Below, in pieces: positions 8,893 through 52,443 of a stretch of DNA of 64,000 nt. Positions within the stretch are counted from its first letter, which is position 1. Every line of letters begins with the position of its first letter. The notes below the pieces were generated by a model. That model ran no database searches. It saw only the letters and a list, made by a program, of their open reading frames with translations, and had not been told where the DNA came from. The DNA comes from an uncultured Myxococcales bacterium (GTDB lineage Bacteria > Myxococcota_A > UBA9042 > DTJE01), in the NCBI GenBank assembly GCA_903847405.1, contig CAINDP010000007.1, positions 48,969-112,968 on the forward strand. Reading direction: 5' to 3'. The translations under genes and the position numbers were made by a program.

Positions 8893-8899
8893 GGGGTGC

Positions 8900-9946: not shown

Positions 9947-10323
9947 CGCGTTCCTCCCGACCGGCCGTCGGCCGGGGGCACGGCCTTCCCGGAGGGGTCC
10001 CCGGGCGCAGCCTTCCCGCGGGACTCGCGTAGCCGGGCATTCCGGGGTGCCAGGTCCCGCGTGGACGACGCCAGTTGGGCCGCCTTGTCGGCGAACTCCC
10101 GTGCCACATCGAATTCTGCCCGTCCGGCCAGGTCCCGTGCCGCCGTCAGGTATCCGTCGGCCGCGGTGATTTCGTAGGGGCACTCCTTGTCCCATCCACG
10201 GGTGCGGGCCTCGCGCAGGGAATCGTCCGCCCGCGTGATGGCCGAGGAGGCCTGGATCGGGCCGCAGCCGGCGCAGAAGAACGCTGCCAGCCCCAGTCCC
10301 AGGACCACCATCCGCATCGCCAT
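9943..10323 (-). CDS. Small lipoprotein (126 aa), DUF4398-like, coupled to the OmpA gene
   Basis: MAMRMVVLGLGLAAFFCAGC has a signal peptide and lipobox. Helical Ala/Arg-rich body. The stop overlaps the OmpA start (ATGA). Small lipoproteins of this kind commonly precede OmpA-family genes. Confidence 0.55.
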   Translation of the reverse strand: MAMRMVVLGLGLAAFFCAGCGPIQASSAITRADDSLREARTRGWDKECPYEITAADGYLTAARDLAGRAEFDVAREFADKAAQLASSTRDLAPRNARLRESRGKAAPGDPSGKAVPPADGRSGGTR

Positions 10324-10399
10324 CCCCCGTCCCGTGCCCGTAGTTCAATACCAGCCGACCTCCGCGGTGTCAACGCGCCCCCCTTCCTCCCTCCCCACC

Positions 10400-10477
10400 G
10401 TGCACGTGGACGTGGACGTAGACGTCGACGTGGACGTGGACGTAGACGTGGACGTAGACGTGGACGTCGACGACTGC
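10400..10477. repeat. Imperfect hexanucleotide tandem repeat (GT[G/A/C][G/C]AC)x13, intergenic
   Basis: Read directly: gtgcac gtggac gtggac gtagac gtcgac gtggac gtggac gtagac gtggac gtagac gtggac gtcgac. It lies between the lipoprotein start (10323) and the metalloprotease stop (10541). A poly-C/G-rich tract precedes it (10378-10399, minus-strand GGGGAGGGAGGAAGGGGGG). Confidence 0.85.
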
Positions 10478-14893: not shown

Positions 14894-14963
14894 CGGAGTC
14901 CCTCCGTTCGCGAGGCCGAGGATCTGGTTCTCACGGTTCCTGTTCATCGCCATCACCTCCGCC

Positions 14964-17900: not shown

Positions 17901-20423
17901 GTCCGGATCGGCGGCCGTCGGGCCGTAGCCCAGCGGGGACGAGAACTGCGCCTCGGACACCCACTGGATGCCGGAGTAGCGCGAGTCGCCGATCTTCTTC
18001 ATCGACTGGGCCTGGGTCATCTTCTGGGCCGGGGTCATCTTGGAGGCGCCGGGCAGAAGGTCGATGCAGGGGCTGACGACGGGCAGTTTGGTCATCTGGT
18101 CCGCCGAGGCGTTCTTGATCGTGGCCCACGGGGCGTAGAGGTTCGACGCCCACTCGTCGTCGAACAGGGCGCCGCCTTCCACCTGGGGCGTGTACGTGTT
18201 GCGGCACATGACGAACATGTCGGGCAGGGTCGCCTTGATTTCGTCCAGGCGCGTCCAGTCTTCGGCCGTCATCGGCTGGTCATAGCCGGCGCAGCGGCCC
18301 ACGCCGTCCGCGATGTAGCAGGTCACGTCGCCCTTGGACCCGGCCGGGGCCAGGACCATGCGCTGGGAAACGAAGTCGGCGGGCAGGTTGACGCCGTTGC
18401 CGCCGCCCGAAACGCCCTGGTAGCCGGAGTTGCCGCCGTTCTCGATGGCGTACATGCGCAGGCCGGCGTCGATCGACAGGTCCGCCGTCACGCCCGTCAT
18501 GTTGATGACGCGCAGGCCCTTGATGTCGCTCTTGATGGCCGAGGCCTTCGCCAGCGTGGTGCCGTCGTACGCCAGGGTGACGACCGAGTTCACCGGGCAG
18601 TCGCCGTTGATGGACGCGATCTCGGTGCCGCCTTCCATGACGCTGAACTTCACGTTGCTGGCCGGAAGCACGGAGGCGTGGGCCGGGGTGGCCGGGTCCT
18701 GGGAATCCGCCTTCTTCGTGTTGGGGTCCGCGACCAGGGCGGGGACGCCGGTCAGTGCCGTCGTGCCGTTGACCGCGAGGTCCAGCGTGCGGCCATCGGC
18801 CAGGTTGATCAGGCGGACGCCGCACTTCGACAGCAGGTCGGTCGGGTACTTCCAGTCCGGCACCATGGCCGACGTCCCGCCGGGAAGCGCGACGATGGTC
18901 TGGCCGATGGACGTCCACTGGATCTTGCCGCTGGCGGACTTCGGGAGGTCGCCGTTGCTGGCGTCCAGTTCGAACATGCGGTCCACGAGGGCGTGGGTCG
19001 CGCAGTCGGTATCCGTGGCGCAGGTGCGGACCTGGTTCTGGCCCAGGATGCGGCCCTTTTCTTCCCACAGGTACAGCCACGCGACGGTGTCCTTCAGCGT
19101 GTCGCTCCAGGACTTCGCGGTCCGGTAGGAACCGGTCCACATTTCCGCCTTGATCATGGTGTCCAGTTCGCCTTCCTTCGGGGCTTCCGTCGGCAGGTCC
19201 GCGGACACGTGGTACACGACCGGGCGCAGGCCGCGCTCGGTGTAGGGCAGGGGAGTGCGGGAAACGCAGTTGCCGCGGGTGAACCACGTGTCGGCCTGGC
19301 AGAACTCCTTCACGCCGTTCACGTTGGTCGTGTCGCAGCCCGTGTTCGCCAGATCCTTGAAGCAGGGCTTCGGCGTGCAGACGGCATTCGGGTCGGCCGT
19401 CGGGCAGGTTTCCCCGGCGGCGGTGATCGTGACGGGGGTGTCCTGGAAGGACTTGTCCCAGATGTTCCAGCGGTTGATGAACGACACCTTGCCGGTGTCG
19501 GTCAGGCCGTAGTCTGCGTCATACGTGTTGCGCTCGGTCAGGAAGTAGCCGAACAGGACCTGACGGTCCTCGTTGTGGAAGCGCATCGGCTCGTAGTCCT
19601 GCGCCGGGTCCACCTTGCGGAACGCCGTGCGGAACTTGACGACGGCCGGGGCGCAGTCGCCGGTGGACACGCCGTAGATGTCGCAGGCGCCGGTCGAGGC
19701 CGGGTTGCCCCAGGACTTCGTGACGACGTCGAAGTAGTCGGGAGTGAAGGACGGGGCGTCGGGGTTCGTCGGGTCGTCGGACTGCACGTAGTAGTCGATC
19801 GGCGACTGGTCGATGATGCGGGCCATGAACGTGAAGTCGCTGATCAGGTTCTTGGCCCAGTTGACGCGCATGTACTTGCGCTGCCACCACAGGTTGTCCT
19901 TGGTGTTTTCCTCCAGGACGTTCGACTGCTCACCGGTCTGGGGGTTGTACGCCCGGGTGACGTCGAAGTGGGACAGGACCTGGAAGATGGCCACCGGCTG
20001 TCCGACGTACATCTGGGTGAAGCAGCACAGGCGCGTGGGGTCGGTCAGGTTGTCCTTCCCGTCCACGCACTGGTACAGCTCGCTGTCCTTGTTCGTGCAG
20101 GCGTCGTCCCAGTACTTGAACAACTTCTGCTGGTGCCAGGTCTTTTCCGATCCCTCGACGTACTCGACCGTCGGGTAGGCGATCAGCTTGTCTTCCTGGA
20201 TGTCGAAGACGACCTTGCCGGTGGCGCCGAAATTCATCTCGCCGACGAACGACCATGCCCCGCTGTAGGGGATGTCGATCACGGTTTGATTCATGTACCA
20301 GACGCCCGCGAACTGCTTCTTCGCAAGCTGTTCGTGCTGGGTCCGGTCAATGGTGCCGACGTCCGTGGCGCAACCGCCAAGGGCGGCGAGCGCCAGTCCC
20401 ACCAGGAACCATCGGGCCTTCAT
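14964..20423 (-). CDS. Giant lipoprotein zinc metalloprotease, metzincin-like (1819 aa), paralog of the preceding gene
   Basis: ATG at 20423 with RBS GGGAGG. Lipoprotein signal MKARWFLVGLALAALGGC. Zinc site VEHEVGHTMGLRHNF with Met-turn VSSIMDYG. Shared N-terminal blocks with the 1450-aa paralog (GTIDRTQ, VFDIQEDKL, YNPQTGEQSNVLEENTKDNLWWQRKYMRVNW). A ~370-aa Cys-rich insertion follows the zinc site. Confidence 0.85.
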   Translation of the reverse strand: MKARWFLVGLALAALGGCATDVGTIDRTQHEQLAKKQFAGVWYMNQTVIDIPYSGAWSFVGEMNFGATGKVVFDIQEDKLIAYPTVEYVEGSEKTWHQQKLFKYWDDACTNKDSELYQCVDGKDNLTDPTRLCCFTQMYVGQPVAIFQVLSHFDVTRAYNPQTGEQSNVLEENTKDNLWWQRKYMRVNWAKNLISDFTFMARIIDQSPIDYYVQSDDPTNPDAPSFTPDYFDVVTKSWGNPASTGACDIYGVSTGDCAPAVVKFRTAFRKVDPAQDYEPMRFHNEDRQVLFGYFLTERNTYDADYGLTDTGKVSFINRWNIWDKSFQDTPVTITAAGETCPTADPNAVCTPKPCFKDLANTGCDTTNVNGVKEFCQADTWFTRGNCVSRTPLPYTERGLRPVVYHVSADLPTEAPKEGELDTMIKAEMWTGSYRTAKSWSDTLKDTVAWLYLWEEKGRILGQNQVRTCATDTDCATHALVDRMFELDASNGDLPKSASGKIQWTSIGQTIVALPGGTSAMVPDWKYPTDLLSKCGVRLINLADGRTLDLAVNGTTALTGVPALVADPNTKKADSQDPATPAHASVLPASNVKFSVMEGGTEIASINGDCPVNSVVTLAYDGTTLAKASAIKSDIKGLRVINMTGVTADLSIDAGLRMYAIENGGNSGYQGVSGGGNGVNLPADFVSQRMVLAPAGSKGDVTCYIADGVGRCAGYDQPMTAEDWTRLDEIKATLPDMFVMCRNTYTPQVEGGALFDDEWASNLYAPWATIKNASADQMTKLPVVSPCIDLLPGASKMTPAQKMTQAQSMKKIGDSRYSGIQWVSEAQFSSPLGYGPTAADPDSGQVFWGIANIYGAPLTTYGNMYRDLFDLISGKLDTADYVTGENIRTYLKDKAKNAPTEVQAMMAPQAPPQGTPAQTLDPIAGMRQQFDPTQQVLQNQKPISQMDIFKIIRDKNIGTPLASTVPVLSPSLGKQRLAALKGTQYEQLMTNSEVQYALDNDSPVSGSPLEWANIQDIQKRERERQIYLGKHAYCYGEFDDEGMLGMVQSWACIGDDPRPRCDEKTWDALDPANDTGSPCCISSGPMLARSILKRFYTAVVEHEVGHTMGLRHNFAASTDLFNYPDKYYDIRVKEPVPCEVNDECEAALGQYCEGHFCRAKKVETCTKASDCGFANAAVPKYDTFDCIAGQCVEITRCNLHGVCPAGSTCNGDDRVCYSSQDGVKTRVTTPVVNENDGKIMAFIPRAELTDSEAQQSRTIYQVSSIMDYGQRWNSDILDLGKYDKAAIRFGYGGLVDVYNDTEKLQNAVHTYYQSYGQDSESQSSDNLDTTYWGGGIFFSQFYFFNNLIGEKANRSEGDSVRNRTAVPYESLRDEHNMTTNYYQSYLDWTYIQVPYKFSGDEYAGNVGIYTWDTGVDALEIVHNMGIQLHDYYLMDAFKRERYGAGLHGNPVGYMTRVQTRYMDVMRGCGMLYALYSHVLKNYSWRGVWANAKLMGYGLRRASETGFEILASTLASPAPGSYKMNVDKNLFENISYLSGATGSELDIPLSDGKYPYTTFWNGAGYFFWDHAQFYGSFWEKMAALMTLTDSTVYFTTNYVGEQLNIGVGTSIGFNTMYPKQLTELFGGAISDSPQIFAGTAEKGGTYAPRKLFDPRNSSIYATDTLGEIVGTVVPAPYLTEVAASTAPRVEPSIQNITLKLYMMVYGMAYLPASFDPSFLDSFTVCLKGNGNCHDIGATSGIVPQEFSDPFTGKTFVVWAPTYTADWYSPNVVLVEKANAQKALWEAATGADKAAAEVELRNIVEVLDMMRGVYEVFSKMKI

Positions 20424-20734
20424 TGCAACCTCCCACACCCTTGGACTGCAAGGCGGAAGCGGCCTGCTCCCTGCCTGAAAACCGACGTTATATACCTGCA
20501 AACACTCGGCAAGGGAAGCGGCAATTCGCGTCGCGGTGTCCGGTCTCTTCAATCGCAAGAATCGGGCCAATACCGGGGCCCCCGGGCGCCTTCCGGTGCA
20601 CCGAAAGCGGGGAGCGGGGGGCTTCCGGCCGGATTCGGTTGCGGCGTCACGATCCGGACGGCGTGCGGCCGCGGCTTTCCAAGACCGCGCCGGCGTGCTA
20701 TCAGATCAAGGTGTAAGCGCGGAGTTGCCCCACG

Positions 20735-39450: not shown

Positions 39451-39759
39451 TCAGTGATTCACGCGGTCGCTCCCGGCGGGGACGAAATCATTCCACCACA
39501 CGATCGCCGCCGCCTGGTCCTCCAGGCGCTGGATCTCCGAAACGTTCATGGACAGCAGGATGGCCACCTCCTGCCGGGTGCGGGCCACCGACGTGCCGAT
39601 CGCATACCGCAGTCGCAGCACCGCCTCCTGCCGGGGGGACAGCAGGGCCAGCCGGGACCGGAGGGCGTCGTCCACCGGCTGCCCCAGGGGGCCCGTGAAG
39701 GGGCGGGGATCCAGGCTCAGCGGACCCCGGTGCGTATCGTGGAGCGTGACATGCGCCAT
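39451..39759 (-). CDS. Stand-alone sigma-70 region-4-like HTH protein (102 aa)
   Basis: LSPRQEAVLRLRYAIG...TRQEVAILLSMNVSEIQRLEDQA resembles sigma-70 region 4 / LuxR-type HTH. There are no region-2 motifs. Confidence 0.5.
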   Translation of the reverse strand: MAHVTLHDTHRGPLSLDPRPFTGPLGQPVDDALRSRLALLSPRQEAVLRLRYAIGTSVARTRQEVAILLSMNVSEIQRLEDQAAAIVWWNDFVPAGSDRVNH

Positions 39760-40105
39760 TTCACCGTCTCCAGAAGATGTGCAAGGATCGAACGCTACCC
39801 CGGCGACCGTACGGCAGGAATCAGTGCCATTCCCGGTTGTTGCGTAAGGGATACCCCTAGCGGCCGCCCGTGGTCGGCGCCAGCACGCTGAGATTCCTGT
39901 TCATGCAGGATCCTCCCACGCGAAATCACCAGGGATTCGGGCATGGACGGCGCGCCTGTCAACCGGCGGACAATTGCCCGGAAACACAGGGCGAACGTGC
40001 CCCTGGGATGGCGGGACGGCATCCCGGGCGGCCGGGGTTCGTCCGCGCCGGGATCGGCGTTGCATCCGTCACCGGGAATCTCGTAGGATCCCCCCCGACG
40101 AGGGA

Positions 40106-42004
40106 ATGATGCAGACCATGCCCGGGGAAGGGACGCAGGGGACAGGCCGCGCCGGGCGGGACGTTGCGCCTTACGCCGGCGCGATCGCCTTCGCGTTGAT
40201 CCTGTGCGTCTACGCGGCGCTGTTTCCGGTGCCCCGTGGGGACCGCGTGGGGGGCGACGGGTTCTACACCTGGATTTTCGCCCGATCGCTGGCCCTGGAC
40301 GGGGACCTCGACCTGGCGAACGACTACGGGACCTGCGGGGATCCCTGGCGGCAGGGGGGCGACGAGGGCGGCGGGCGTCCGGCGAATCCCTTCTACCTGG
40401 GCCCGGCCCTCCTGTGGGCGCCGCTGCTGGCCATCGTCAAGACGGTGCAACCGCTTCCTCCCGACGCGTCGCCCCGGTGGAAGGACGCCTGCGCGGGGCC
40501 CTGGGCGGACACCACGCTGGCGTTGACGCCGCTGATCGCCGCCTTGACCGCCCTGATGGGCTTCCTGCTGGCGCGGCGCTTCTGCGGTCCCTGGACGTCG
40601 GCTGCCGCGATGCTGGTCGTCGGCCTGGGCTCGGCGCTGATGCACTGGGGCGCGATGGTCGTCCAGTACTCCCACGCCTACGCGGCCTTCGGAGTGGCGG
40701 TGGGCGTCCTGGCGTGGGTGCGGGCTGCGGAGGTTCCGGCCTCCCGGTGGCGCTGGTTGCTGGCCGGGGTCGGGATCGGGTTCGCGGCGCTGATGCGCAG
40801 CCAGGCGATGGTCCTGCTGCTGGCCCCCGCCATCACGCTGGGGATCCGCCTGGTCGCCGATCTGCGGGCGCGGCGGAACCCCGTGCCGTGCATCGTGGCC
40901 GGCGGCCTGGTCCTGGCCGGGTTCGCGTCCCTGTTCTGGATCCAGGTCGCGGCCAACGTGGCCCTCTATGGCAAACCCTTCGTCATCCCCCAGGGGGCGA
41001 CGTACCTGCAACTGGCCCACGCCCACCCGTTCCTGACGCTGTTCGCCGCGCGCAACGGGCTGCTGACCTGGCACCCGCTGTTGTGGCTGGGCTTCATCGG
41101 GATCGGGATCATGATCGCCCGGCGTTCCAGCCGCGCACTGGGGATTGCCCTGTGGGTGCCCCTCGCGATCGACCTGTACGTCAACTCGGCGGCCCTCGAC
41201 TGGCACGGGGCCGCATCGTTCGGGGCGCGCAGGCTGGTGAGCCTGTCGGCGCCGCTGGTCGCCACGACCGCCCTGTGCCTGGGGGTTCTGTGGCGCTGGC
41301 TTTCGGCGACCCGGTTGCGGCTGGGGCTGTTTGCCGCCGCGGGATGGCTGCTGCCCTGGTTCGTGATCGGCGTGGGCATGTCCATCGGGGACATCCAGGG
41401 GGACATCCCGAACGACAAGGCGGTCCCGATGGCCGATCTGTACCCGGCCGGCCTGAAGAAGGCCCTGCAGGTCACCCATCGCGCCGTCGGGAACCCCGCG
41501 GCCTGGCCCGCGTCGCTGCCGTTCGCGGTCCGTTACGGCGTGGCACCGGGGCGCTTCGACTTCTTCACCGGTGGCGGGATGTTCCGTCATACCTACCGGC
41601 CGGTGAAACTGGCGGGAGCGAACACGATCGATTTCAAGGCCCGCGAGGTGGATGACCTCCTGGTCGAGGGCCTGGAACGGCAGCCCGCAGGCGTGCGGCT
41701 GCAGGAAGGCGTTCGCGGCCGCTTCCTGGTGGAACTGGAGTGGCCCTTCGTGACGCACGTGTCCGTCACCGCGAAGCCGTCCTGCGGCCGGACCGTCGCC
41801 CTGACGATCGTCGTCGGCCAGTTCACGTGCCGCACCGACGTGGGCGTCCTGGGGTTTCCCGCGGAGGGGGCGTCGGTCGAAATCGCGGTTCCCGAGGGGG
41901 CCTTCGACTCGGGCGTCAACGAGGTTGTTCTGGAAGCCGACGGGGATCTGGTCCTGGAATCCTGGACGTGGGTCGATCGGGGAGTGCACGACACCAGTTT
42001 GTGA
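40106..42004 (+). CDS. Polytopic membrane protein, GT-C-fold glycosyltransferase-like (ArnT/PMT-like), 632 aa
   Basis: ATG-ATG at 40106. ~11 TM helices. N-terminal loop motif GDGFYTWIFARSLALDGDLDLANDY. C-terminal ~200-aa soluble domain. Confidence 0.6.
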   Translation: MMQTMPGEGTQGTGRAGRDVAPYAGAIAFALILCVYAALFPVPRGDRVGGDGFYTWIFARSLALDGDLDLANDYGTCGDPWRQGGDEGGGRPANPFYLGPALLWAPLLAIVKTVQPLPPDASPRWKDACAGPWADTTLALTPLIAALTALMGFLLARRFCGPWTSAAAMLVVGLGSALMHWGAMVVQYSHAYAAFGVAVGVLAWVRAAEVPASRWRWLLAGVGIGFAALMRSQAMVLLLAPAITLGIRLVADLRARRNPVPCIVAGGLVLAGFASLFWIQVAANVALYGKPFVIPQGATYLQLAHAHPFLTLFAARNGLLTWHPLLWLGFIGIGIMIARRSSRALGIALWVPLAIDLYVNSAALDWHGAASFGARRLVSLSAPLVATTALCLGVLWRWLSATRLRLGLFAAAGWLLPWFVIGVGMSIGDIQGDIPNDKAVPMADLYPAGLKKALQVTHRAVGNPAAWPASLPFAVRYGVAPGRFDFFTGGGMFRHTYRPVKLAGANTIDFKAREVDDLLVEGLERQPAGVRLQEGVRGRFLVELEWPFVTHVSVTAKPSCGRTVALTIVVGQFTCRTDVGVLGFPAEGASVEIAVPEGAFDSGVNEVVLEADGDLVLESWTWVDRGVHDTSL

Positions 42005-42015
42005 GGAGCCGCGAC

Positions 42016-42507
42016 CTACAGGTACCGCTTCAGCAGCTTCTTGCCCTGGGGGTCCAGGGCGCGGGTATCCAGCACGCGATACCGGACCCCTTCGGCGTCG
42101 GAAATCAGCACGCCGTTCAATCCCAGGCGCCGCACGTGGTCCTCGCTGGTCAGCACGAAGCGGACCTCGCCGCGATCCGTTTCCACGTGCCACGCGGTGG
42201 GCTCGGACCCCTGCGAGATGTCCAGGATGCGGCGGATGGTCGGCACGAACTCGCGGCGGGACAGTTCCTGCTCCAGCAGGCTCCGCACGCCCGGATCCAG
42301 GTCGGCCAGGTCGGTGATGCAGGCCACCTCGTGGCCCTGCGGGTCGCACAGCGAAACGCGCTGCGTGGGCGAGGTGAACGGGAAGCAGCGCACGGGGACC
42401 ACGTTCACCACGGGCGCGGCGCCCGGCAGTGCCATGACCATGCGGCCGAAGGCATCGACGTGCAGCGCCAGAGCGGCGGCGTCACCAGAGGTCAGGTCCG
42501 TGGTCAC
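42016..42507 (-). CDS. Small conserved protein, DUF1854-like (163 aa), coupled to the ABC exporter
   Basis: The GTG at 42507 overlaps the ABC exporter stop (GTGA). Proteins of this type usually neighbour ABC exporters. Confidence 0.55.
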   Translation of the reverse strand: MTTDLTSGDAAALALHVDAFGRMVMALPGAAPVVNVVPVRCFPFTSPTQRVSLCDPQGHEVACITDLADLDPGVRSLLEQELSRREFVPTIRRILDISQGSEPTAWHVETDRGEVRFVLTSEDHVRRLGLNGVLISDAEGVRYRVLDTRALDPQGKKLLKRYL

Positions 42508-44858
42508 GGCGACTCCTTCCGCGACGGTTCGGCGCGCAACAGGGCCTGGGGCGGCAACGGCTCGACCGGAGCGCCCTCGCCGGGGTGCTCCATTTCATGG
42601 CGCGACTGCGCCTCGTACAGGCTGCGGTACAGCCCGTCGGCGGCGATCAACTGCTCGTGGCTGCCCGTTTCGACGATGCGTCCGCCGTCCAGCACGACGA
42701 TTCTATCCGCGTTGCGCAGGGTGCTCAGGCGGTGCGCGATGGCCAGCGTGGTGCGGCCGCGGACCAGGTTGTCCAGGGCTTCCTGGATCTGGATTTCGGT
42801 CTGCGTGTCCACCGACGACGTCGCCTCGTCCAGGATCAGCAGGCGCGGGTCGATCAGCAGCGCCCGGGCGATGCTGATGCGCTGGCGCTCGCCGCCCGAC
42901 AGGGTCTGGCCGCGCTCCCCGACGATGCTGTCATAGCCGTCGGGCAACTGCAGGATGAACTCGTGGGCCCGGGCGGCACGGGCGGCGGCGATGATCTCGT
43001 CGTGCGACGCCGCGGGCCGGCCGTAGGCGATGTTTTCGGCGATGGTCCCGTAGAACAGGAACGGGTCCTGCAGCACGATGCCGATGTTGCGGCGGTACTC
43101 CAGCGTCGGGAACGACCGGATGTCCTTGCCGTCCACCAGGATCGAGCCGTCCGTCACGTCGTAGAACCGGCAGATCAGGTTCAACAGCGTGGTCTTGCCG
43201 GCGCCGGTGGGCCCCACGACGCCGACCATCTCGCCGGGGCGGATCGTGATGCTGACGTCGTCCAGGATGCGGCGGTTGCCGAAGCGGAAGCCCACGTTCC
43301 GCAGTTCGACCTCGCCCTTCAAGCGTCCCGGGGAAACGGGGTTCGCCGGCTCGGCGACGCTGGGCGCCCGGTCCAGGACCTCGAAGATGCGCTGGGCGCT
43401 GGCGGCCGCACGCTGGGTGCTGCCCGCCATGCGGGTCATCGATTCCAGGCGGCCGTAGAACCGCGCGATGTACGCCAGGAACGCGGTCAGCACGCCGACG
43501 GTGATCACCTGGTCGAACACGCGCCAGGCGCCGAAGGCCCAGGCGACCACCAGTCCCATCTGGTTCAGCATGGCGACCATGGGCCAGAAGAACGTCCAGA
43601 CGCGGTTGACGCGGTCGTTCGCGGCCACGATGCGGTCGTTGGAGGCCTTGAACCGTTCGACCTCGCGCCGTTCCTGGGCGAAGGCCTTCACGACGCGGAC
43701 GCCGGGAATGGTGTCGGACAGGATCGAGGTCATTTCGTCCCAGGCGCGGTAGCCCCGGGCGAAGCCCTCGGACAGCCGGGTCCGGGTGGTATACGTCAGC
43801 CAGGCGACGCCCGGGAAGGTGCACAGCGTCGCCGCGGCCAGCAACGGATCCATGTAGAACAGCATGGCCGCGATGCCGACGATCATCAGGGCGTCGGCCG
43901 TGAAGTCCGTCAGGGTATCGGAAAGGAAGTAGCAGATGCGGTCCGAGTCGGTGCTGATGCGCGTCACCAGATCGCCCGTGCGCTTGGCGCTGAAGTAGTC
44001 CAGGGACAGGGAATGCACGTGGGCGTACGTCGTGTTGCGCAGGTCCGCGCTGATGCGCTCGGACAGGCGGGCCAGCACCCAGCCCTGTCCCCATCCGAGG
44101 CCCCAGGCCGCCAGGCCGGACCCGATCATTCCCAGGAGGTACCACGGCACCATCGCGAAGGGTTCGTGCGCCTTCTCCCGCAGGGATTCCAGGCGGGCCT
44201 CCCTGGCCACTTCGCCGATCGTCGGGTCGTCGCGGGCGATTTTCACCTGCTCCTGGTAGGGGGCGAAGATGTCGTCCACCAGGGGCCACGTCAGCAGCGG
44301 CGGGATCAGTCCCGCCGCGGTCGAGGTCAGGGTCAGGCACAGGCCCAGGGCCAGCCACGCCAGGTGGGGGCGCGCGAAGCGCAGCAGCCGGAACAGGGTG
44401 CCGACGCGCGGGGGTTCCTCGGGCTGGACCGTTTCCGGGACCTCCAGGTCGGCCTCCTGGCCGGCCGTCGCCGAAGGGACCTGTCGCTCCGCCCGGAGGC
44501 CGGCGAACACGTCGAGGACCGATGCGACCCCCTTCGCCCGGCCGAGGGTGTAGTGCCAGCGACCCAGGAGGCCGTCGGCTCCCAGGGCTTCCAGCGTGCC
44601 CAGGCCGCCGCGATCCGTTGCCGTCAGGCCGGTGACGGCCTCCAGGGGCCAGGCGCGGAAACCGGTGCGCGCGGCCAGGTCGTCCATCGCGATCAGGCGG
44701 CGCTCGGTGAGCGCGACGATGCCCTCGCGGAAGGCCCGGGACGGGTCCAGATCCAGACGGAAGGAGGCCAGGATCCGCTCGCCCGGATCGAGGTGCGGGG
44801 CGAGGATCGCAAGCGAGGGATGGAGGGCGTTGTTGCGACGTTCGGTGCTGTCGTTCAA
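42504..44858 (-). CDS. ABC exporter (fused 6-TM permease + ATPase, MsbA type) with an N-terminal bacterial PH-like domain
   Basis: Walker A GPTGAGKTT, signature LSGGERQR, Walker B LILDEATSSVD. TM domain with an ABC-exporter fold. N-terminal GERILASFRLDL...GIVALTERRLIA (bPH-like). The start is uncertain (TTG at 44858, or ATG at 44687). The ORF-track extension to 45191 crosses repeat copy D and was rejected. Confidence 0.75.
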   Translation of the reverse strand: MNDSTERRNNALHPSLAILAPHLDPGERILASFRLDLDPSRAFREGIVALTERRLIAMDDLAARTGFRAWPLEAVTGLTATDRGGLGTLEALGADGLLGRWHYTLGRAKGVASVLDVFAGLRAERQVPSATAGQEADLEVPETVQPEEPPRVGTLFRLLRFARPHLAWLALGLCLTLTSTAAGLIPPLLTWPLVDDIFAPYQEQVKIARDDPTIGEVAREARLESLREKAHEPFAMVPWYLLGMIGSGLAAWGLGWGQGWVLARLSERISADLRNTTYAHVHSLSLDYFSAKRTGDLVTRISTDSDRICYFLSDTLTDFTADALMIVGIAAMLFYMDPLLAAATLCTFPGVAWLTYTTRTRLSEGFARGYRAWDEMTSILSDTIPGVRVVKAFAQERREVERFKASNDRIVAANDRVNRVWTFFWPMVAMLNQMGLVVAWAFGAWRVFDQVITVGVLTAFLAYIARFYGRLESMTRMAGSTQRAAASAQRIFEVLDRAPSVAEPANPVSPGRLKGEVELRNVGFRFGNRRILDDVSITIRPGEMVGVVGPTGAGKTTLLNLICRFYDVTDGSILVDGKDIRSFPTLEYRRNIGIVLQDPFLFYGTIAENIAYGRPAASHDEIIAAARAARAHEFILQLPDGYDSIVGERGQTLSGGERQRISIARALLIDPRLLILDEATSSVDTQTEIQIQEALDNLVRGRTTLAIAHRLSTLRNADRIVVLDGGRIVETGSHEQLIAADGLYRSLYEAQSRHEMEHPGEGAPVEPLPPQALLRAEPSRKESP

Positions 44859-44935
44859 GGGGGCCCCACTGCAGCCGCGCCGCAGTTTACTTCCACCGGG
44901 GCCGTGAGTAAAATGCCGCCCGCGGCCGTCCGACG

Positions 44936-45019
44936 GAGCCGCCCGAGCACGCAGGCGCAGGCGAGCGGATTGCGCAGCAATCTCTCGCCGAAGACGAAGT
45001 CGCCTCGGGCCTTTCCACT
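44936..45019. repeat. Intergenic ~84-bp hairpin repeat element, copy D (in the divergent promoter region)
   Basis: gagccgCCCGAGcacgcaggcgcaggcgagcggattgcgcagcaatctctcgccgaagacgaagtcgcCTCGGGcctttccactg. The 5' half resembles copies A/B and the 3' half resembles copy C. Confidence 0.85.
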
Positions 45020-45111
45020 GGACGCGTACCGGGGCGTTCCGGCGTTGGCGCGATGTCCCAGGGGGCTGGGCGCGGCGCCGGGGTTCAGATCCCTTCATGT
45101 CGAAGGAAACC

Positions 45112-47760
45112 ATGGAATTCCAGCGAATTCTGGCACTGAAGGGACCCAATCTCTGGTCGCGGCGCACCTGCCTGGAAGCCTGGGTGGACATCGGTCCGCT
45201 GCAGGATTCGCCGTCGAACCTGCTGCCCGGCCTGTACGAGCGTCTGTCCGCCTGGCTGCCGGGCCTGATCGAGCACCGGTGCGGCGTCGGGGAGCGGGGC
45301 GGCTTCCTGATGCGCCTGCGCGACGGGACCTACGCCGCCCACATGCTGGAACACGTGGCCATCGAACTGCAGAACCTGGCGGGCACGCCGGTCGGGTTCG
45401 GCAAGGCCCGGGAAACCTCGCGGCCCGGCCTGTACAAGGTCGCCATCCGGTACCGCAACGAAACAGTGGCGCGGGCCTGTCTGGATGCGGGACGGGACCT
45501 GCTGCTGGCGGCCATCCACGACCATCCGTACGACGTGGCCGACACCGTCGCCCGGCTGCGGGACGTGGCCGACGGCGCCTGCCTGGGCCCCAGCACGGCG
45601 GCCATCGTCGATGCGGCCGAGGCGCGGGGCATCCCGACGCACCGCCTGACCGACGCCAGCCTGGTCCAGTTGGGCCAGGGCGCCCGGCAGCACCGGATCT
45701 GGACGGCCGAAACCGATCGCACCGGCGCGATCGGCGAGTGGATCGCCTCGGACAAGGACATGACCAAGCGCCTGCTGCAGGCGTGCGGCGTGCCGATCCC
45801 CGAGGGCCGCCTGGTGGACGGCGCGGAAGACGCCTGGGTGGCCGCGCAGTCGGTGGGGCTGCCCGTCGTCGTCAAGCCCCGGGACGCCAACCACGGGCGG
45901 GGCGTCTTCACGGACCTGTCGTCCCGCGAGGAAATCGAAAACGCCTACGCCGTCGCGGTGAACGAGGGCAGCGGGGTGATCGTCGAGCGCTTCGTCCGCG
46001 GCAACGAGCACCGCCTGCTGGTCGTCGGCCACAGCATGGTGGCGGCCGCCCGGGGCGAAACCGCGTGGGTCGTCGGGGACGGGCGCTCCACGGTGCGGGA
46101 CCTGGTGACCTCGCAGATCGATTCGGATCCGCGACGCGGGTTGGGCGAGGACTTCCCCCTGAACTTCATCGAACTGGACGACCCGGTGGTGATGCTGGAC
46201 ATGCGGCGCCAGGGGTATTCGGCCGATTCGGTGCCTGCCGACGGCGCCCGGGTGATGGTCCAGCGCAACGGGAACGTGGCGTTCGACGTCACGGACATCG
46301 TGCATCCCCGCGTCGCCGCCAGCGTGGTCCTGGCGGCCCGGGTGGTCGGCCTGGACGTGGCCGGCATCGACATCGTCGCCGAGGACATCACGCGTCCGCT
46401 GGAAGAGCAGGGCGGTGCCGTGGTCGAGGTCAACGCGGGCCCCGGCCTGTCGATGCACCTCAAGCCCGCCGCCGGGACCCCCCGGCCGGTCGGGGAAGCG
46501 ATCGTGGACAGCCTGTTCGCCCCCGGCGAATCGGGCCGGATCCCCCTGGTCTGCGTGACCGGCACCAGCGGCAAGACCGTGGTGACGCGCCTGGTCGCCC
46601 ACCTGCTGCGGGCTGACGGGCGCCACGTGGGCCTGGCGTGCAGCGACGGCCTGTACCTGGATTCCCGGGTGATCGAAACGTGCGATCGCGCGGACGCCCC
46701 GGGCGCACGCAAGGCGCTGATGAACCCCTCCGTCGACGCGGCGGTGCTGGAGGCGGGCGGCCCCAGCATCCTGCGCGAGGGCCTGGGCTTCGACCGGTGC
46801 GACGTGGCGGTAGTGACCAACATCGGGCAGGGCGATCACCTGGGGCTGCACGACATCCAGTCGCCCGACGCCCTGTACTCGGTGAAGCGTTGCGCGGTGG
46901 ACGTGGTGCTGCCGACGGGGACCGCCGTGCTGAATGCCGCCGACCCCCTGGTGGCGGAAATGGCGTCCCTGTCCGCCGGCGCGGTGATCTTCTTCGCGCT
47001 GGACGCGGGCCACCCGATCCTGGGGGCCCATCGGGCTGCGGGCGGGCGTGCCGTGACGGTCCGCGACGGTCGCGTGGTCCTGGCCGAGGGGGACGTGGAA
47101 ACGCCCATCGCGGACGTTTCCGCCTTGCCGTTGGCCCACGGGGGGCGCGTTCCGTTCCAGGTCGAAAACGTGCTGGCGGCGGCGGCGGCGGGCTGGGCGC
47201 TGGGCCTGTCTCCCGCGGCGCTGGGCGCGGGTGTCCTGTCGTTCGACCGCGATGGCCGCGAACTCCCCGGCCGCTTCACCTGCATGGAACATGACGGGGC
47301 GACCGTCGTGATCGACGCGGTCCGCAACCCGGTGTCCGGCGGGGCCCTGGCGACGGCCCTGGATCACTTCCCCGCCAGGCGCAGGACCCTCGTCTGTGTC
47401 CCGGGGATCCTGCGGCGCGACGCCGATCTGGAGGACCTGGGCCGGATCCTGGGCGCCGCCTTCGATCGCATCGTCTTCTGCGGTTCGGAACCGGCGTCGC
47501 AGGAGGAGGACGCCGCTGCGGCAACAAGAATTGTCGATGCCTTGCAACCTTCCACCGGGTCGCTCCGTACACCCCTTCGACGCGGGGCCTTATCGGGCGG
47601 ACGGGCGGTTGAAATCGTGCAGGTTCCGGGGCATCACGAGGCCGTCGAGGCCGCCCTGGACACGCTGGAGGTCGGCGATCTGCTGGTCCTCCAGGCCGAC
47701 GAATATCATCCCGGGTCCACCGTCGATCAGGTCCGCGAATGGATGGTACGGCACGCCTAG
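45112..47760 (+). CDS. cphA: Cyanophycin synthetase
   Basis: ATG at 45112 with RBS GAAGGAAA. N-domain (LKGPNLWSRRT, TRETSRPGLYKV). ATP-grasp (LGPSTAAIV, VVVKPRDANHGRGV, IVERFVRGNEHRLLVV, VEVNAGPGLSMH). Mur-ligase domain (VTGTSGKTVVTRL, GDHLGL). Confidence 0.9.
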   Translation: MEFQRILALKGPNLWSRRTCLEAWVDIGPLQDSPSNLLPGLYERLSAWLPGLIEHRCGVGERGGFLMRLRDGTYAAHMLEHVAIELQNLAGTPVGFGKARETSRPGLYKVAIRYRNETVARACLDAGRDLLLAAIHDHPYDVADTVARLRDVADGACLGPSTAAIVDAAEARGIPTHRLTDASLVQLGQGARQHRIWTAETDRTGAIGEWIASDKDMTKRLLQACGVPIPEGRLVDGAEDAWVAAQSVGLPVVVKPRDANHGRGVFTDLSSREEIENAYAVAVNEGSGVIVERFVRGNEHRLLVVGHSMVAAARGETAWVVGDGRSTVRDLVTSQIDSDPRRGLGEDFPLNFIELDDPVVMLDMRRQGYSADSVPADGARVMVQRNGNVAFDVTDIVHPRVAASVVLAARVVGLDVAGIDIVAEDITRPLEEQGGAVVEVNAGPGLSMHLKPAAGTPRPVGEAIVDSLFAPGESGRIPLVCVTGTSGKTVVTRLVAHLLRADGRHVGLACSDGLYLDSRVIETCDRADAPGARKALMNPSVDAAVLEAGGPSILREGLGFDRCDVAVVTNIGQGDHLGLHDIQSPDALYSVKRCAVDVVLPTGTAVLNAADPLVAEMASLSAGAVIFFALDAGHPILGAHRAAGGRAVTVRDGRVVLAEGDVETPIADVSALPLAHGGRVPFQVENVLAAAAAGWALGLSPAALGAGVLSFDRDGRELPGRFTCMEHDGATVVIDAVRNPVSGGALATALDHFPARRRTLVCVPGILRRDADLEDLGRILGAAFDRIVFCGSEPASQEEDAAAATRIVDALQPSTGSLRTPLRRGALSGGRAVEIVQVPGHHEAVEAALDTLEVGDLLVLQADEYHPGSTVDQVREWMVRHA

Positions 47761-47811
47761 GCGTGTCGCGTGTGTTCGACGCCGATCGTGGCTGGACAGG
47801 GAAAGCCCCCG

Positions 47812-50433
47812 ATGGAAGTCACCCGCATCCGAGCCCTCCGCGGCCCGAACCTGTGGTCGCGCCGGACGGTCCTGGAAGCCATCGTTTCACTGACGGACGA
47901 ACAGCGCCAGATCCTGGCGCGGCCGGGGTTCGAGGAGCGCCTGCGCGAGCGGATGCCCAGCCTGGGCCGTCTGCCTCCCACGGGCGAACCCGGCGCGTTC
48001 AGCCTGGCCCACGTCCTGGAAAGGGTCGCCCTGGGGCTGCAGGCCCAGGCCGGGTGCCCCGTCTTCTTCAGTCGGACCGCGATGACGGTCGAGGAAGGCG
48101 TCTACCAGGTCGTGGTCGAATACGCGGTCGAGGAGGTCGGGCGGCTGGCGCTGGACCAGGCGCAGACCCTCTGCGACGCCGCGCTGGACGGACAGCCCTA
48201 CGACGTCGTCGACGCCCTGCTGCGACTGCGGGCCCTGGACGAGGAGATCCGCCTGGGGCCGTCGACGGGATCGATCGTCCGTGCGGCCCTGTCCCGCGGG
48301 ATTCCCATCCGCCGCCTGAACGAAGGCAGCCTGGTGCAGTTCGGCTGGGGCGTGAAGCAGCACCGGATCCTGGCGGCCGAAACGGACCACACCAGCGCCA
48401 TCGCCGAATCGATCGCCCAGGACAAGGAACTGACCAAGATGCTGCTGGAGGCGGCCGGCGTGCCGGTGCCCCGGGGGCGTCCCGTGACCGATGCCGAGGA
48501 CGCCTGGGAGGCCGCGCAGGAAGTCGGCCTGCCCGTGGTCGTCAAGCCGCGCAACGGCAGCCAGGGACGCGGCGTCGCCGTGAACCTGACCACCCGCGAG
48601 GCGGTCGCCGCCGCATACGTCGCGGCCGAGCAGGTCACCAGCGAGGTCCTCGTCGAGCGGTTCATGCCGGGCCGGGACTTCCGCCTGCTGGTGATCGGCG
48701 GACGCCTGGTCGCAGCGGCCCGTCGCGAGCCCCCTGAGGTTGTCGGGGACGGCGAGCGGACCATCCGCCAGTTGGTGGACGAAGTGAACGCCGATCCGCG
48801 GCGCAGCGACGGCCATGCGACGTCGTTGACCCGGATCCCGCTGGACGCGATCGGCCTGGCCGTCCTGGCCGAACAGAACTGCACTCCGGAAACGGTTCCC
48901 GCCCACGGCGTGCGCGTCCTGCTGCGCGGCAACGCGAACCTCAGCACCGGCGGGACGGCGACGGACGTCACCGACCAGGTCCATCCGGACGTGGCGGCCG
49001 GGGCCGTGGATGCGGCCAAGGTCATCGGCCTGGACATCTGTGGCGTGGACGTCATCTGCCAGGACATCTCCCGTCCCCTGCAGGAGCAGTCCGGCGGCGT
49101 CGTGGAAGTCAACGCGGCTCCGGGGTTCCGCATGCACCTGGATCCTTCCTACGGGAAGGGCCGGCCGGTGGGCGAGGCGGTCGTGTCCACGATGTTTGCC
49201 GAGGGCGACGACGGCCGCATCCCGCTGGTGGCCGTATCCGGCACCAACGGCAAGACGACCACGGTCCGCCTGGTTTCGCACCTGCTGAAGGCCCGGGGCC
49301 AGTGCGTGGGCATGACCTGTTCCGACGGGATCTACGTGGACGCACGGCGCATCGACGACGGGGACTGCAGCGGTCCCAAGAGCGCCCGGGCGATCCTGCT
49401 GCACCCGGACGTCGAGGCGGCCGTGTTCGAAACCGCACGGGGCGGGATCCTGCGCGAGGGCCTCGCCTTCGACAAGTGCGACGTGGCCGTGGTCACGAAC
49501 GTCGGGACCGGCGATCACCTCGGGCTGTCGTTCATCACGACGGTCGATGATCTGGCGGTCATCAAGCGCGTGATCGTCGAAAACGTGGCGCCCACGGGCG
49601 TCGCGGTTCTGAACGCGGCCGATCCCCTGGTGGCGCCCATGGCCGAGGCGTGCCCGGGGACGGTGACGTTCTTCGCCCCGAACGCGGACAACGCGGTCCT
49701 CGCCGCGCATCGCAGTGCCGGTGGACGCGTGGTGTTCGTGGACGGTTCCGACATCGTCGCCGTCGAGGGCGCGACCGAGGAGCGCATCGCCCTGGCGTCC
49801 ATCCCGATCACCCGCGACGGGTGCGTGCGCTTCCAGGTCGAAAACGCGATGGCCTCCATCGGGGCCGCCTGGGCGTTGAAGGTCGACTGGGCCACCATCC
49901 GCACCGGGCTGGGGACCTTCGTCAACGACATCCAGACCGCGCCCGGGCGCTTCAACATCCTGGACTACAGGGCCGCGATGGTGATCGCGGACTACGGCCA
50001 CAATCCGGACGCCATCCTTGCCCTGGTGGACGCGGTCGAGCGCATGCCGTCCCGGCGCCGCATCGCGGTGATCAGCGCCGCCGGCGATCGCCGGGACGTG
50101 GACATCCGGCGCCAGACCGAAATCCTGGGCGAGGCCTTCGACGAAATCATCCTGTACCAGGACGCCTGCCAGCGCGGCCGCGAGGACGGCGAGGTCGTGG
50201 CGCTGCTGCGCGAAGGCCTCAGCCATGCGCATCGCGTGTCGGAGGTGTCCGAGATCCGGGGCGAGTTCCTGGCCATCGAAACGGCCCTGGGCCGCCTGGC
50301 TCCGGGCGACCTGGCCTTGATCCTGATCGATCAGATCGAGGAGTCCCTGGCGCTGCTGGAACGTGCGATCCAGGGTGCGCCGCTGCGCGCCGAAGAGGGC
50401 GCGGCCGGGAACCTGGAAGCCGCGTGCGGATGA
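47812..50433 (+). CDS. cphA: Second cyanophycin synthetase paralog (cphA'-type)
   Basis: ATG at 47812 (MEVTRIRALRGPNLWSRRT). VVVKPRNGSQGRGV, DPRRSDGH, VEVNAAPGFRMH, VSGTNGKTTTVRL, GDHLGL. It starts 52 bp after the first cphA. Confidence 0.9.
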   Translation: MEVTRIRALRGPNLWSRRTVLEAIVSLTDEQRQILARPGFEERLRERMPSLGRLPPTGEPGAFSLAHVLERVALGLQAQAGCPVFFSRTAMTVEEGVYQVVVEYAVEEVGRLALDQAQTLCDAALDGQPYDVVDALLRLRALDEEIRLGPSTGSIVRAALSRGIPIRRLNEGSLVQFGWGVKQHRILAAETDHTSAIAESIAQDKELTKMLLEAAGVPVPRGRPVTDAEDAWEAAQEVGLPVVVKPRNGSQGRGVAVNLTTREAVAAAYVAAEQVTSEVLVERFMPGRDFRLLVIGGRLVAAARREPPEVVGDGERTIRQLVDEVNADPRRSDGHATSLTRIPLDAIGLAVLAEQNCTPETVPAHGVRVLLRGNANLSTGGTATDVTDQVHPDVAAGAVDAAKVIGLDICGVDVICQDISRPLQEQSGGVVEVNAAPGFRMHLDPSYGKGRPVGEAVVSTMFAEGDDGRIPLVAVSGTNGKTTTVRLVSHLLKARGQCVGMTCSDGIYVDARRIDDGDCSGPKSARAILLHPDVEAAVFETARGGILREGLAFDKCDVAVVTNVGTGDHLGLSFITTVDDLAVIKRVIVENVAPTGVAVLNAADPLVAPMAEACPGTVTFFAPNADNAVLAAHRSAGGRVVFVDGSDIVAVEGATEERIALASIPITRDGCVRFQVENAMASIGAAWALKVDWATIRTGLGTFVNDIQTAPGRFNILDYRAAMVIADYGHNPDAILALVDAVERMPSRRRIAVISAAGDRRDVDIRRQTEILGEAFDEIILYQDACQRGREDGEVVALLREGLSHAHRVSEVSEIRGEFLAIETALGRLAPGDLALILIDQIEESLALLERAIQGAPLRAEEGAAGNLEAACG

Positions 50434-50538
50434 CGCGTTCCGTTCCGCCCGCATGATTCCCCGCATCTCACGTTGACGCCGCACCCCGCAAGCGTTTCAA
50501 TGCCCCGGTACGAATTGGATGTGTTGCCGGGAGGCCCC

Positions 50539-52443
50539 ATGAAGTTCCTGAAGACGGTTCTGTGGATCGCGATCGCCCTGGTGGGGGCCTTTTCGTACGC
50601 GGTGATCACCCGGCTGGTGAACCCGGACGAGCCGATCAACGCCCTGTGGCTGGTCGTCGCCGCCGCCTGTACCTACGTGCTGGCGTACCGGTTCTACGGC
50701 GCCTTCCTGGCCTCGAAGGTCTTTGCGCTGGACGATCGCAGCCCGACCCCGGGCGTGCGGTTCGCCGACGGCCGCGACTTTCACCCGACGAACAAGTGGG
50801 TGCTGTTCGGGCACCACTTCGCCGCCATCGCGGGCGCGGGTCCGCTGATCGGCCCGGTGCTGGCCGCCCAGTTCGGCTACCTGCCGGGCGCCCTGTGGCT
50901 GCTGCTGGGGGCGGTGTTCGCCGGCGCGGTCCACGACTTCGTCATCCTGGTCGCGTCGATCCGCCATGACGGGTGCTCGCTGGCGGAAATCGCCCGCCGG
51001 GAGGTCGGCCCGGTCGCGGGCGTGGCCGCGTCGCTGGCGACCCTGTTCATCGTGGTGGTCGCGCTGGCGGGCCTGGGACTGGCCGTCGTGAACGCGCTGG
51101 CGCACAGCCCCTGGGGTACCTTCACGATCGCCAGCACCATCCCGATCGCGCTGTTCATGGGCCTGTACATGTACAAGATCCGGCCCGGCAAGGTGGTCGA
51201 AACGACCGTGATCGGCGTCACGCTGTTGATCCTGGCCGTGGTGTTCGGGCACGACGTCGCGAATTCCGAGGCGGCCGGGTGGTTCACGCTGCAGCGGAAC
51301 ACGCTGGTCTTCGCGATGGCGGCCTACGGGTTCATCGCGTCGGTGCTGCCGGTGTGGATGCTGCTGTGCCCGCGGGATTACCTCAGCACGTACATGAAAC
51401 TGGGGACGATCTTCCTGCTGGCCGCCGGCATCCTGTTCCTGGCGCCCGACCTGAAGATGCCTGCGACGACGCAGTTCATGGACGGCTCGGGGCCGGTGAT
51501 CCCCGGCTCGGTGTTCCCGTTCATGTTCATCACGATCGCGTGCGGCGCGGTGTCCGGTTTCCACGCGCTGGTCGCGTCGGGCACGACGCCGAAGATGATC
51601 AAGCGGGAGTCCGACGCGCTGGCGATCGGATACGGGGCGATGCTGGTCGAGGGCTTCGTGTCGATGATGGCGCTGATCGCCGCCAGTTGCCTGATCCCCG
51701 GCGACTACTTCGCGATCAACTCGATGCTCAGCGTGGACGCGCTGACGCAGTTGGGCTTTGCGCCCGAGCGGATCCACGAACTGTCGCAGATGGTCGGGAC
51801 CGACGTGATGAACCGGCCGGGCGGCGCGGTGTCGCTGGCGGTGGGCATGGCGTCGATTTTTTCGTCCCTGCCCGGGATGAAGGGCCTGATGGCCTACTGG
51901 TACAACTTCGCGCTGATGTTCGAGGCGCTGTTCATCCTGACCACGGTGGACACGGGGACCCGCGTGGCGCGCTTCCTGGTGCAGGAGATGGGCGGGTACT
52001 TCTACAAGCCCCTGGGGCGGCACGCGTGGATTCCGGGGACGCTGCTTTCCAGCACGCTGGTCGTGGGGGCCTGGAGCTACATGATCTACACGGGCAGCAT
52101 CGCGACGATCTGGCCGATGTTCGGGGTGGCGAACCAGTTGCTGGCGGCCATCGCGCTGTCGGTGGGGACCTCGGTCATGTTCCGGATGGGGAAGGCGAAG
52201 TACACGCCGATCACGATCGTCCCGATGGCCTTCATGGTCGTCACGACGCTGACGGCTTCGGTGGAACTGGTCCAGCGGTATTGGGCCGAGGCCGCAGCGA
52301 AACCGGAGTTGGCGTTCACGTTGCGGCTGGACGCGGTGCTGGTGGGGATCGTCGCGTGCCTGGTCGTGGTCATCCTGGTCGATTCGATCCGCCGGTGGCG
52401 GGGGTACATGGCGGCCGGGCCCAAGAGGCCGGTCGTGGCGTAA
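50539..52443 (+). CDS. cstA: Carbon starvation protein A (CstA family peptide/pyruvate transporter)
   Basis: ATG at 50539 with RBS GGGAGG. 634 aa, ~16 TM. CstA blocks (WVLFGHHFAAIAGAGPLIGPVLAAQFGYLPG, GNVLWALDSLTTG-like FMFITIACGAVSGFHALVASGTTPKM). Confidence 0.9.
   Translation: MKFLKTVLWIAIALVGAFSYAVITRLVNPDEPINALWLVVAAACTYVLAYRFYGAFLASKVFALDDRSPTPGVRFADGRDFHPTNKWVLFGHHFAAIAGAGPLIGPVLAAQFGYLPGALWLLLGAVFAGAVHDFVILVASIRHDGCSLAEIARREVGPVAGVAASLATLFIVVVALAGLGLAVVNALAHSPWGTFTIASTIPIALFMGLYMYKIRPGKVVETTVIGVTLLILAVVFGHDVANSEAAGWFTLQRNTLVFAMAAYGFIASVLPVWMLLCPRDYLSTYMKLGTIFLLAAGILFLAPDLKMPATTQFMDGSGPVIPGSVFPFMFITIACGAVSGFHALVASGTTPKMIKRESDALAIGYGAMLVEGFVSMMALIAASCLIPGDYFAINSMLSVDALTQLGFAPERIHELSQMVGTDVMNRPGGAVSLAVGMASIFSSLPGMKGLMAYWYNFALMFEALFILTTVDTGTRVARFLVQEMGGYFYKPLGRHAWIPGTLLSSTLVVGAWSYMIYTGSIATIWPMFGVANQLLAAIALSVGTSVMFRMGKAKYTPITIVPMAFMVVTTLTASVELVQRYWAEAAAKPELAFTLRLDAVLVGIVACLVVVILVDSIRRWRGYMAAGPKRPVVA

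Follow-up and report, generated by a model that had tools for sequence, protein, structure and literature searches.

The 64,000 nucleotides (nt) analysed here (the window; positions 48,969 to 112,968 of contig CAINDP010000007.1 from an uncultured Myxococcales bacterium, assembly GCA_903847405.1) encode an ATP-binding cassette (ABC) exporter and a DUF1854 protein whose genes lie on the minus strand, divergent from two tandem cyanophycin synthetase (cphA) genes. The exporter has two extra cytoplasmic modules, a predicted PH-like domain at its N-terminus and the DUF1854 protein, and its gene is firmly tied to cyanophycin synthetase genes in four distant lineages. The best explanation of this arrangement is that the exporter and the DUF1854 protein form one functional module with the divergent synthetase pair cphA'/cphA, and on balance we consider it probable that they export the product of CphA and CphA'. 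The gene pair is real as it was first described in a sequence-only reading of the window, which missed its conserved partners, the two divergent synthetase genes. The family to which this Myxococcota-type pair belongs already has curated NCBIfam models, and a hypothesis on its function has been published (Price et al., bioRxiv 10.1101/072470). The additions made here are modest: the assignment of the PH fold, a clade-specific zinc-ribbon and a loop deletion in CphA'.

The genomic context was surveyed in 80 loci with DUF1854 relatives from Myxococcales, Planctomycetota, Chromatiaceae and Burkholderiales. Of the 66 loci with sufficient sequence, 64 have an ABC gene directly upstream of the DUF1854 gene and in the same orientation. 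This agrees with the earlier description of the small protein as one that recurs beside ABC exporters, and disposes of the possibility, raised with it, that the small open reading frame (ORF) is not conserved next to exporters. The two genes are closely spaced: of 71 loci, 27 have an ABC stop and a DUF1854 start that overlap by 1–8 nt, 22 have a spacing of 0–30 nt between them, and one has a fused gene. At least one divergent cphA lies within 10 kb in 44/50 loci. The trio of ABC, DUF1854 and cphA genes is conserved across the four distant bacterial groups, and an all-against-all comparison of the ORFs of the loci identified no other gene conserved across taxa, among them no membrane-fusion protein, outer-membrane component or cyanophycinase. 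The ~1-kb gap that separates the ABC and cphA genes in Planctomycete loci contains no extra conserved gene, the gene ends alone being conserved. The closest locus, in which the ABC protein is 86% identical to the one studied here, belongs to an uncultured Myxococcales metagenome-assembled genome. In the two exceptional loci (L015, positions 8633–10477, and L023) the DUF1854 gene follows a DsbB gene and a DsbA-like thioredoxin gene with an overlapping start, and no ABC exporter is found within 10 kb upstream of it.

The tandem cphA genes are separated from the divergent ABC gene by 238 nt. The distal one (47770..50433, plus strand) encodes a canonical cyanophycin synthetase of the CphA1 type with 887 amino acids (aa). 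It scores 980.7 bits with the CphA1 equivalog model TIGR02068 (cut-off 850), is related to the solved CphA1 structures 7wac (7e-195) and 7lg5 (4e-186), and keeps the motifs NANLSTGG, GTNGKTT and DYGHNP. The ABC-proximal paralog (CphA'-like; 45097..47760, plus strand), also of 887 aa and 47% identical to the distal protein, scores 1119 bits with NF010623 and falls under the TIGR02068 cut-off (834.7 bits) with motif losses: five residues, LSTGG, are missing from the ATP-grasp motif NANLSTGG, and DYGHNP is replaced by DAVRNP. The LSTGG loop deletion is shared by the proximal copy of 10 other two-gene loci of Myxococcales and Burkholderiales (L001, L004, L007, L010, L011, L035, L049, L050, L061, L066), and both the ATP-grasp and DYGHNP motifs are retained in the distal and single-copy cphA genes of the loci compared. 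This sequence pattern suggests that CphA and CphA' form a conserved pair with divided tasks, in which CphA' would be a non-canonical subunit. The proximal copies of Burkholderiales are also truncated at the C-terminus and sometimes have a degenerate P-loop. The two cphA genes of the Chromatiaceae loci L014, L025, L029 and L044 look complementary rather than duplicated: the proximal copies of L014, L025 and L044 lack the ATP-grasp motifs and keep GTNGKTT and DYGHNP, and the distal copies of L014, L025 and L029 keep the ATP-grasp motifs and miss the C-terminal Mur-ligase motif. The distal copy of L044 is complete.

The interval from which the ABC gene and the first cphA diverge (44859..45096) carries a putative promoter, TTTACT-17-TAAAAT at 44886–44914 on the plus strand, which is the only match to the sigma-70-like consensus in the segment 39300–45300 and lies in an AT-rich spot of a genome of ~70% GC. 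On the other side of the synthetase genes, 40 nt past the second cphA, starts a gene of the CstA (carbon starvation protein A) family (50473–52443, plus strand), which is present also in L001 and in no other locus surveyed.

The ABC exporter gene (42504..44858, minus strand) codes for a half-transporter of 784 aa that starts with the TTG at 44858 and ends with a TGA at 42504–42506, within a maximal ORF that extends from 42504 to 45191. The TTG was assigned as initiation codon because the GC content at third codon positions (GC3) jumps there from 0.65–0.70 upstream to 0.81–0.97 downstream, the public gene call P0001 has the identical 784-aa sequence with the same start, the nearest homologues begin with a methionine at the aligned position (MNDTFDRR in P0002; LNDSTERR here) and the N-terminal segment is kept in 120/120 homologues listed. 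Initiation at the ATG at 44687, which had been put forward as the event that would remove the N-terminal domain, was rejected: alignment of homologues, GC3 and domain integrity concur that it cuts through a domain conserved in all of those 120 sequences. Starts between 45098 and 45191 were rejected because the codon statistics there are non-coding and such starts would overlap that of the plus-strand cphA gene. Both coding regions of the segment 42016–44858 have a clear codon bias, with a GC3 of ~0.9. The DUF1854 gene (42016..42507, minus strand; 163 aa) starts with a GTG that shares the sequence GTGA with the TGA stop codon of the exporter gene. The junction reads GGAAGGAGTCGCCGTGACC and the Shine-Dalgarno sequence GGAAGGAG is positioned 7 nt 5' of the GTG. 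The translational coupling described for the pair is confirmed by this arrangement.

The exporter scores 1003.9 bits (E = 5e-302) with NCBIfam model NF052233, "cyanophycin metabolism-associated ABC transporter", above its equivalog cut-off of 880. The transmembrane domain (residues ~161–470; 43449..44378) has hydrophobic segments from residue 166 on and matches Pfam ABC_membrane at residues 235–469 (5e-44). It is followed by the nucleotide-binding domain (residues ~515–757; 42588..43316), with an ABC_tran match at residues 532–681 (7e-35) and intact ATPase motifs: Walker A at residue 549, LSGGE at 653, Walker B and the catalytic glutamate at 673–678, and the H-loop at 708. This order of domains and the full set of motifs define a half-transporter of the ABCB type (type IV fold), catalytically competent as judged from its motifs. 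Being a half-transporter whose ATPase motifs are intact, it presumably functions as a homodimer. Solved ABCB-type exporters resemble its core from residue ~173 onwards, the closest sequence relatives among them being multidrug and peptide-type exporters. Other curated exporter families do not accommodate it: scores stay far under the cut-offs of the models for the lipid A flippase MsbA (TIGR02203, 440 versus 602 bits; NF008381, 340 versus 867) and for HlyB and bacteriocin exporters (TIGR01846, 390 versus 725; TIGR01193, 274 versus 524), and equally far under those of the NCBIfam glucan and CydCD exporter models.

The segment preceding the transmembrane domain comprises a PH-like domain (residues ~20–126; 44481..44801, minus strand) and an acidic, proline-rich linker to the first transmembrane helix, TM1 (residues ~127–160; 44379..44480), which has a low predicted local distance difference test (pLDDT) score at the C-terminal end of the model. 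The domain is cytoplasmic according to the established topology of this exporter class. Its AlphaFold2 model, built with 54 diverse homologues, has a pLDDT of 89.9, with seven strands that lead into a long helix at the C-terminus. The strands form a beta sandwich that the helix closes, and PH-superfold structures are its only structural matches. We conclude, from a high-confidence prediction, that the exporter N-terminus is a PH-like domain, in line with the fused permease-ATPase with an N-terminal PH-like domain described in the sequence-only reading. The family that the same reading suggested searching for, Pfam bPH_2 (PF03703), gave no match in the N-terminus at E-values up to 10, nor in any of the 54 family members at E-values up to 1. 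The nearest Pfam family is bPH_3 (PF14470, YokE-like), with a sub-threshold score (13.4 bits, E = 0.11; gathering cut-off 23 bits). In a hidden Markov model search of the 54 homologues, weak bPH_3 matches (E up to 1) appeared in 13, the best with E = 1.9e-4, and a few homologues matched Vps36-GLUE, PH_TFIIH or GRAM. The domain shares its predicted topology with bPH_3 and with the branch formed by GRAM, TFIIH-p62 and Vps36-GLUE, to which it is tied by scattered matches below threshold. By sequence comparison it is likely to be a remote relative of bPH_3, if related at all; it stays below the curated threshold, appears to belong to no curated bPH family, and seems nearest to bPH_3/GRAM rather than to bPH_2.

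The hallmark of the PH-like domain is the hairpin that joins strands 5 and 6, with the invariant sequence DRGGLGTLEA. This motif is specific to the cyanophycin-linked ABC family and distinguishes its N-terminal domain from bPH_3 and bPH_2 proteins. A profile of the domain searched against 1.84 billion representative proteins gave 945 matches. Of the best 150, which were inspected, 42 reach into an exporter transmembrane domain; the remainder are mostly short pieces, several ending at the start of TM1, which is compatible with fragments of the same ABC family. PDB sequence searches with the N-terminal domain and with the DUF1854 protein returned nothing meaningful, and profile-profile comparison of the two detected no relationship (probability 0.6%). 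Many family members have a zinc-ribbon, CxxC-x(10-12)-CxxC, between the PH-like domain and TM1 in place of the acidic linker (the ABC genes of L014, L021, L025, L033, L035, L061 and L066; representatives P0156–P0305). The zinc-ribbon is a feature of Planctomycete, Chromatiaceae and some Burkholderiales clades and is missing in the exporter of this Myxococcota-type genome and in all 120 close (Myxococcota-type) homologues listed.

The 163-aa protein belongs to Pfam DUF1854 (PF08909; E = 6.3e-44, 149.4 bits versus a cut-off of 26.8), as had been supposed, and also to NCBIfam NF052234, "cyanophycin metabolism-associated DUF1854 family protein" (171.6 bits versus 150). It is a soluble protein made by translational coupling, with no segment resembling a transmembrane helix, and is predicted to be a cytoplasmic accessory subunit of the exporter. 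Its location on the cytoplasmic face follows from its fusion, in some genomes, to the C-terminal end of the nucleotide-binding domain. One such protein is P0105, with 970 aa, in which the ABC and DUF1854 parts are naturally fused and DUF1854 comes after that domain, at the C-terminus. The AlphaFold2 model of the DUF1854 protein (pLDDT 90.4) has no significant match among solved structures.

The presence of two cytoplasmic modules of a protein-interaction type on one exporter, together with the strict genetic link to the synthetases and the lack of anything extracellular in the conserved set, would also fit a complex that transports nothing. It could be a membrane anchor or an ATP-driven regulator of CphA/CphA', the PH-like domain and DUF1854 holding the synthetase or its granule at the membrane. 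We regard this as improbable. The catalytic ATPase motifs and the full six-helix exporter domain are kept across distant phyla, which argues for transport, and we are aware of no ABCB-type exporter that serves solely as an anchor.

Transport systems with comparable additions indicate what the two modules might do in an exporter of the CphA/CphA' product. HlyB-type and bacteriocin exporters are likewise exporter-fold half-transporters with an extra N-terminal cytoplasmic domain, and that domain (C39-like in HlyB, a C39 peptidase in bacteriocin exporters) binds the cargo. Their docking domains offer the best working analogy for the PH-like domain. They differ from the system described here in having the C39 fold instead of the PH fold, and in that no membrane-fusion or outer-membrane partner is conserved in the loci of the latter. 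In Wzt, the ATPase of an O-antigen ABC transporter, a C-terminal beta-rich carbohydrate-binding domain recognises the polymer. DUF1854 could be likened to this domain by its position after the nucleotide-binding domain, whether fused or encoded by a coupled gene; Wzt is nevertheless a component of another transporter class, with a separate permease, and DUF1854 has no significant structural match to any solved domain. By analogy with HlyB and Wzt, the PH-like domain and/or DUF1854 would dock the nascent product, or the synthetase itself, at the cytoplasmic entrance of the exporter. At the membrane, CphA and its degenerate paralog CphA' would synthesise poly(Asp-Arg) as a cyanophycin-like polymer or oligomer, and ATP hydrolysis would move it to the periplasm or envelope, where it would have an envelope or extracellular role instead of serving as a cytoplasmic nitrogen store.

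We infer export from the gene context and from the cofitness reported by Price et al. (bioRxiv 10.1101/072470), who observed it for all four genes in two betaproteobacteria, along with motility and stress phenotypes, and proposed that the polymer made by CphA/CphA' leaves through an ABC exporter of which DUF1854 is a subunit. They noted also that cyanophycinase is absent from these lineages. The cluster of Cupriavidus basilensis 4G11 (RR42_RS04420) and Acidovorax sp. 3H11 is composed of the same families, now NF052233 and NF052234, in the same order (ABC then DUF1854, divergent from two tandem cphA), and has the same degenerate motif in the ABC-proximal cphA paralog. The proximal CphA' is truncated in Burkholderiales and has full length (887 aa) here. 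A cphA-cphA-ABC cluster was noted in activated-sludge genomes (PMC10687191). Literature searches for later experimental work on the cyanophycin-linked exporter turned up Price et al. and one metagenomic mention only.

The substrate might alternatively be a small molecule of cyanophycin turnover, such as the beta-Asp-Arg dipeptide, short oligomers released by the synthetase, or arginine. Its export would balance the pool or feed neighbouring cells, with the PH-like domain and DUF1854 as regulatory sensors. The typical cargo of ABCB-type half-transporters is a small amphipathic compound or a peptide, the closest solved sequence relatives of this exporter are of the multidrug and peptide types, and the surveyed loci have no conserved outer-membrane or periplasmic partner. 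A CstA-family transporter gene directly follows cphA in the window and in L001, and members of the CstA family have been linked to the uptake of peptides or pyruvate. This gene is not conserved past the closest relative, however, and a local source of dipeptide is lacking because neither a cyanophycinase nor a dipeptidase is among the genes conserved across loci. The cofitness with both synthetases and the envelope-type phenotypes also fit a polymer somewhat better. A small-molecule substrate is thus unlikely in our assessment, though it is the alternative that we take most seriously.

Transport in the opposite direction has a precedent in IrtAB, an importer with the exporter fold and an N-terminal cytoplasmic domain, which the half-transporter described here resembles in its N-terminal accessory domain. 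Such an importer could take up fragments of cyanophycin or primers for the synthetases, and CphA1 enzymes often need primers (PMC9262961). We consider import very improbable. Importers of this fold are rare, neither a periplasmic binding protein nor an extracellular cyanophycinase is conserved nearby in the surveyed loci, and the canonical cphA copy is of a type that, according to PMC9262961, can usually make its own primers.

Export of the CphA/CphA' product has itself to face several difficulties. The half-transporter dimer would have to move a bulky cargo, a branched polymer of tens of kDa, and the genes have no conserved membrane-fusion or outer-membrane partner beside them. The names of the NCBIfam models say only "associated". 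The earlier-studied CphA/CphA' pair of Cupriavidus made no cyanophycin (according to Price et al., bioRxiv 10.1101/072470), so that the product may be a different one. Finally, no cphA is found within 10 kb in 6/50 loci and DUF1854 occurs without an ABC gene in 2/66. A broader proposal is more tentative, and we find it possible with the balance leaning against it: that in Myxococcota, Planctomycetota, purple sulfur bacteria and Burkholderiales the cyanophycin-type polymer is a secreted or envelope poly-amino acid, made by a CphA/CphA' hetero-enzyme and passed straight to an exporter dedicated to it, in which the PH-like domain and DUF1854 form a new kind of cytoplasmic polymer-docking gate. 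If export proves true, cyanophycin outside cyanobacteria will need to be rethought as an envelope or extracellular material rather than as a storage granule, and the widespread exporter family might make it possible to have cyanophycin secreted, for use in nitrogen recovery and in the production of biopolymers. The PH-fold domain with its invariant DRGGLG hairpin and the LSTGG loop that the proximal synthetase paralog systematically lacks are handles for experiments; these details leave the overall picture drawn by the literature and NCBIfam unchanged.

The immediate consequence is a corrected annotation, in which the two genes belong to a cyanophycin-linked export module and not to a glycoconjugate system. 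The sequence-only reading had grouped the ABC and DUF1854 proteins with the products of two other genes, one coding for a membrane protein resembling glycosyltransferases of the GT-C fold and one for a stand-alone sigma-region-4 protein, in an envelope module exporting glycoconjugates or peptides. The GT-C-like gene (39974..42004, plus strand) encodes a multi-pass membrane protein with a weak annotation. It ends 11 nt from the convergent DUF1854 gene, and this orientation means that the two are not co-transcribed. The membrane architecture of its product is compatible with GT-C proteins; its score with the NCBIfam LA_3751/LA_3752 glycosyltransferase model is 15.4 bits against 200, and it has no Pfam match at E-values up to 0.01 and no sequence relative in the PDB. 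The sigma-region-4-like ORF (39451..39759, minus strand; 102 aa) scores 19.4 bits with Sigma70_r4 against a cut-off of 24.1. In favour of a glycoconjugate module, all these genes are physically adjacent in the window and the GT-C-like gene is adjacent to the pair in L001 too. L001, the closest relative, is the only one of the 80 loci to have it, and is syntenic through close relatedness: it also shares CstA, DAGK-like and hydrolase genes with the window. The sigma-region-4 ORF recurs in none of the 80 loci. As neither neighbour recurs beyond L001 and both are weakly annotated, with a glycosyltransferase assignment that Pfam, NCBIfam and the PDB leave unsupported, a glycoconjugate export module of the four proteins is scarcely credible. 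The peptide half of the proposal comes near our favoured hypothesis, export of a non-ribosomal poly-amino acid, which is already in print and reflected in the NCBIfam names; the glycoconjugate half is dropped. The sigma-region-4 ORF sits between the GT-C-like and DAGK-like genes, at a place where L001 has ~130 nt and misses the ORF.

Two further observations concern large genes outside the conserved trio. At least 10 Planctomycete loci carry a subtilase gene (Peptidase_S8 and PPC domains, 1000–1450 aa) that is convergent with DUF1854 and placed right after it (L020, 5329–8472, minus strand; L027, L031, L038, L052, L065, L070, L073, L075, L076), which could reflect synteny within the lineage or a secreted partner. 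Within the window, two large adjacent ORFs with strong codon bias are found on the minus strand at 10541–14956 (1471 aa) and 14964–20570 (1868 aa), and their sole Pfam match is a short Met-zincin (DUF4953) motif.

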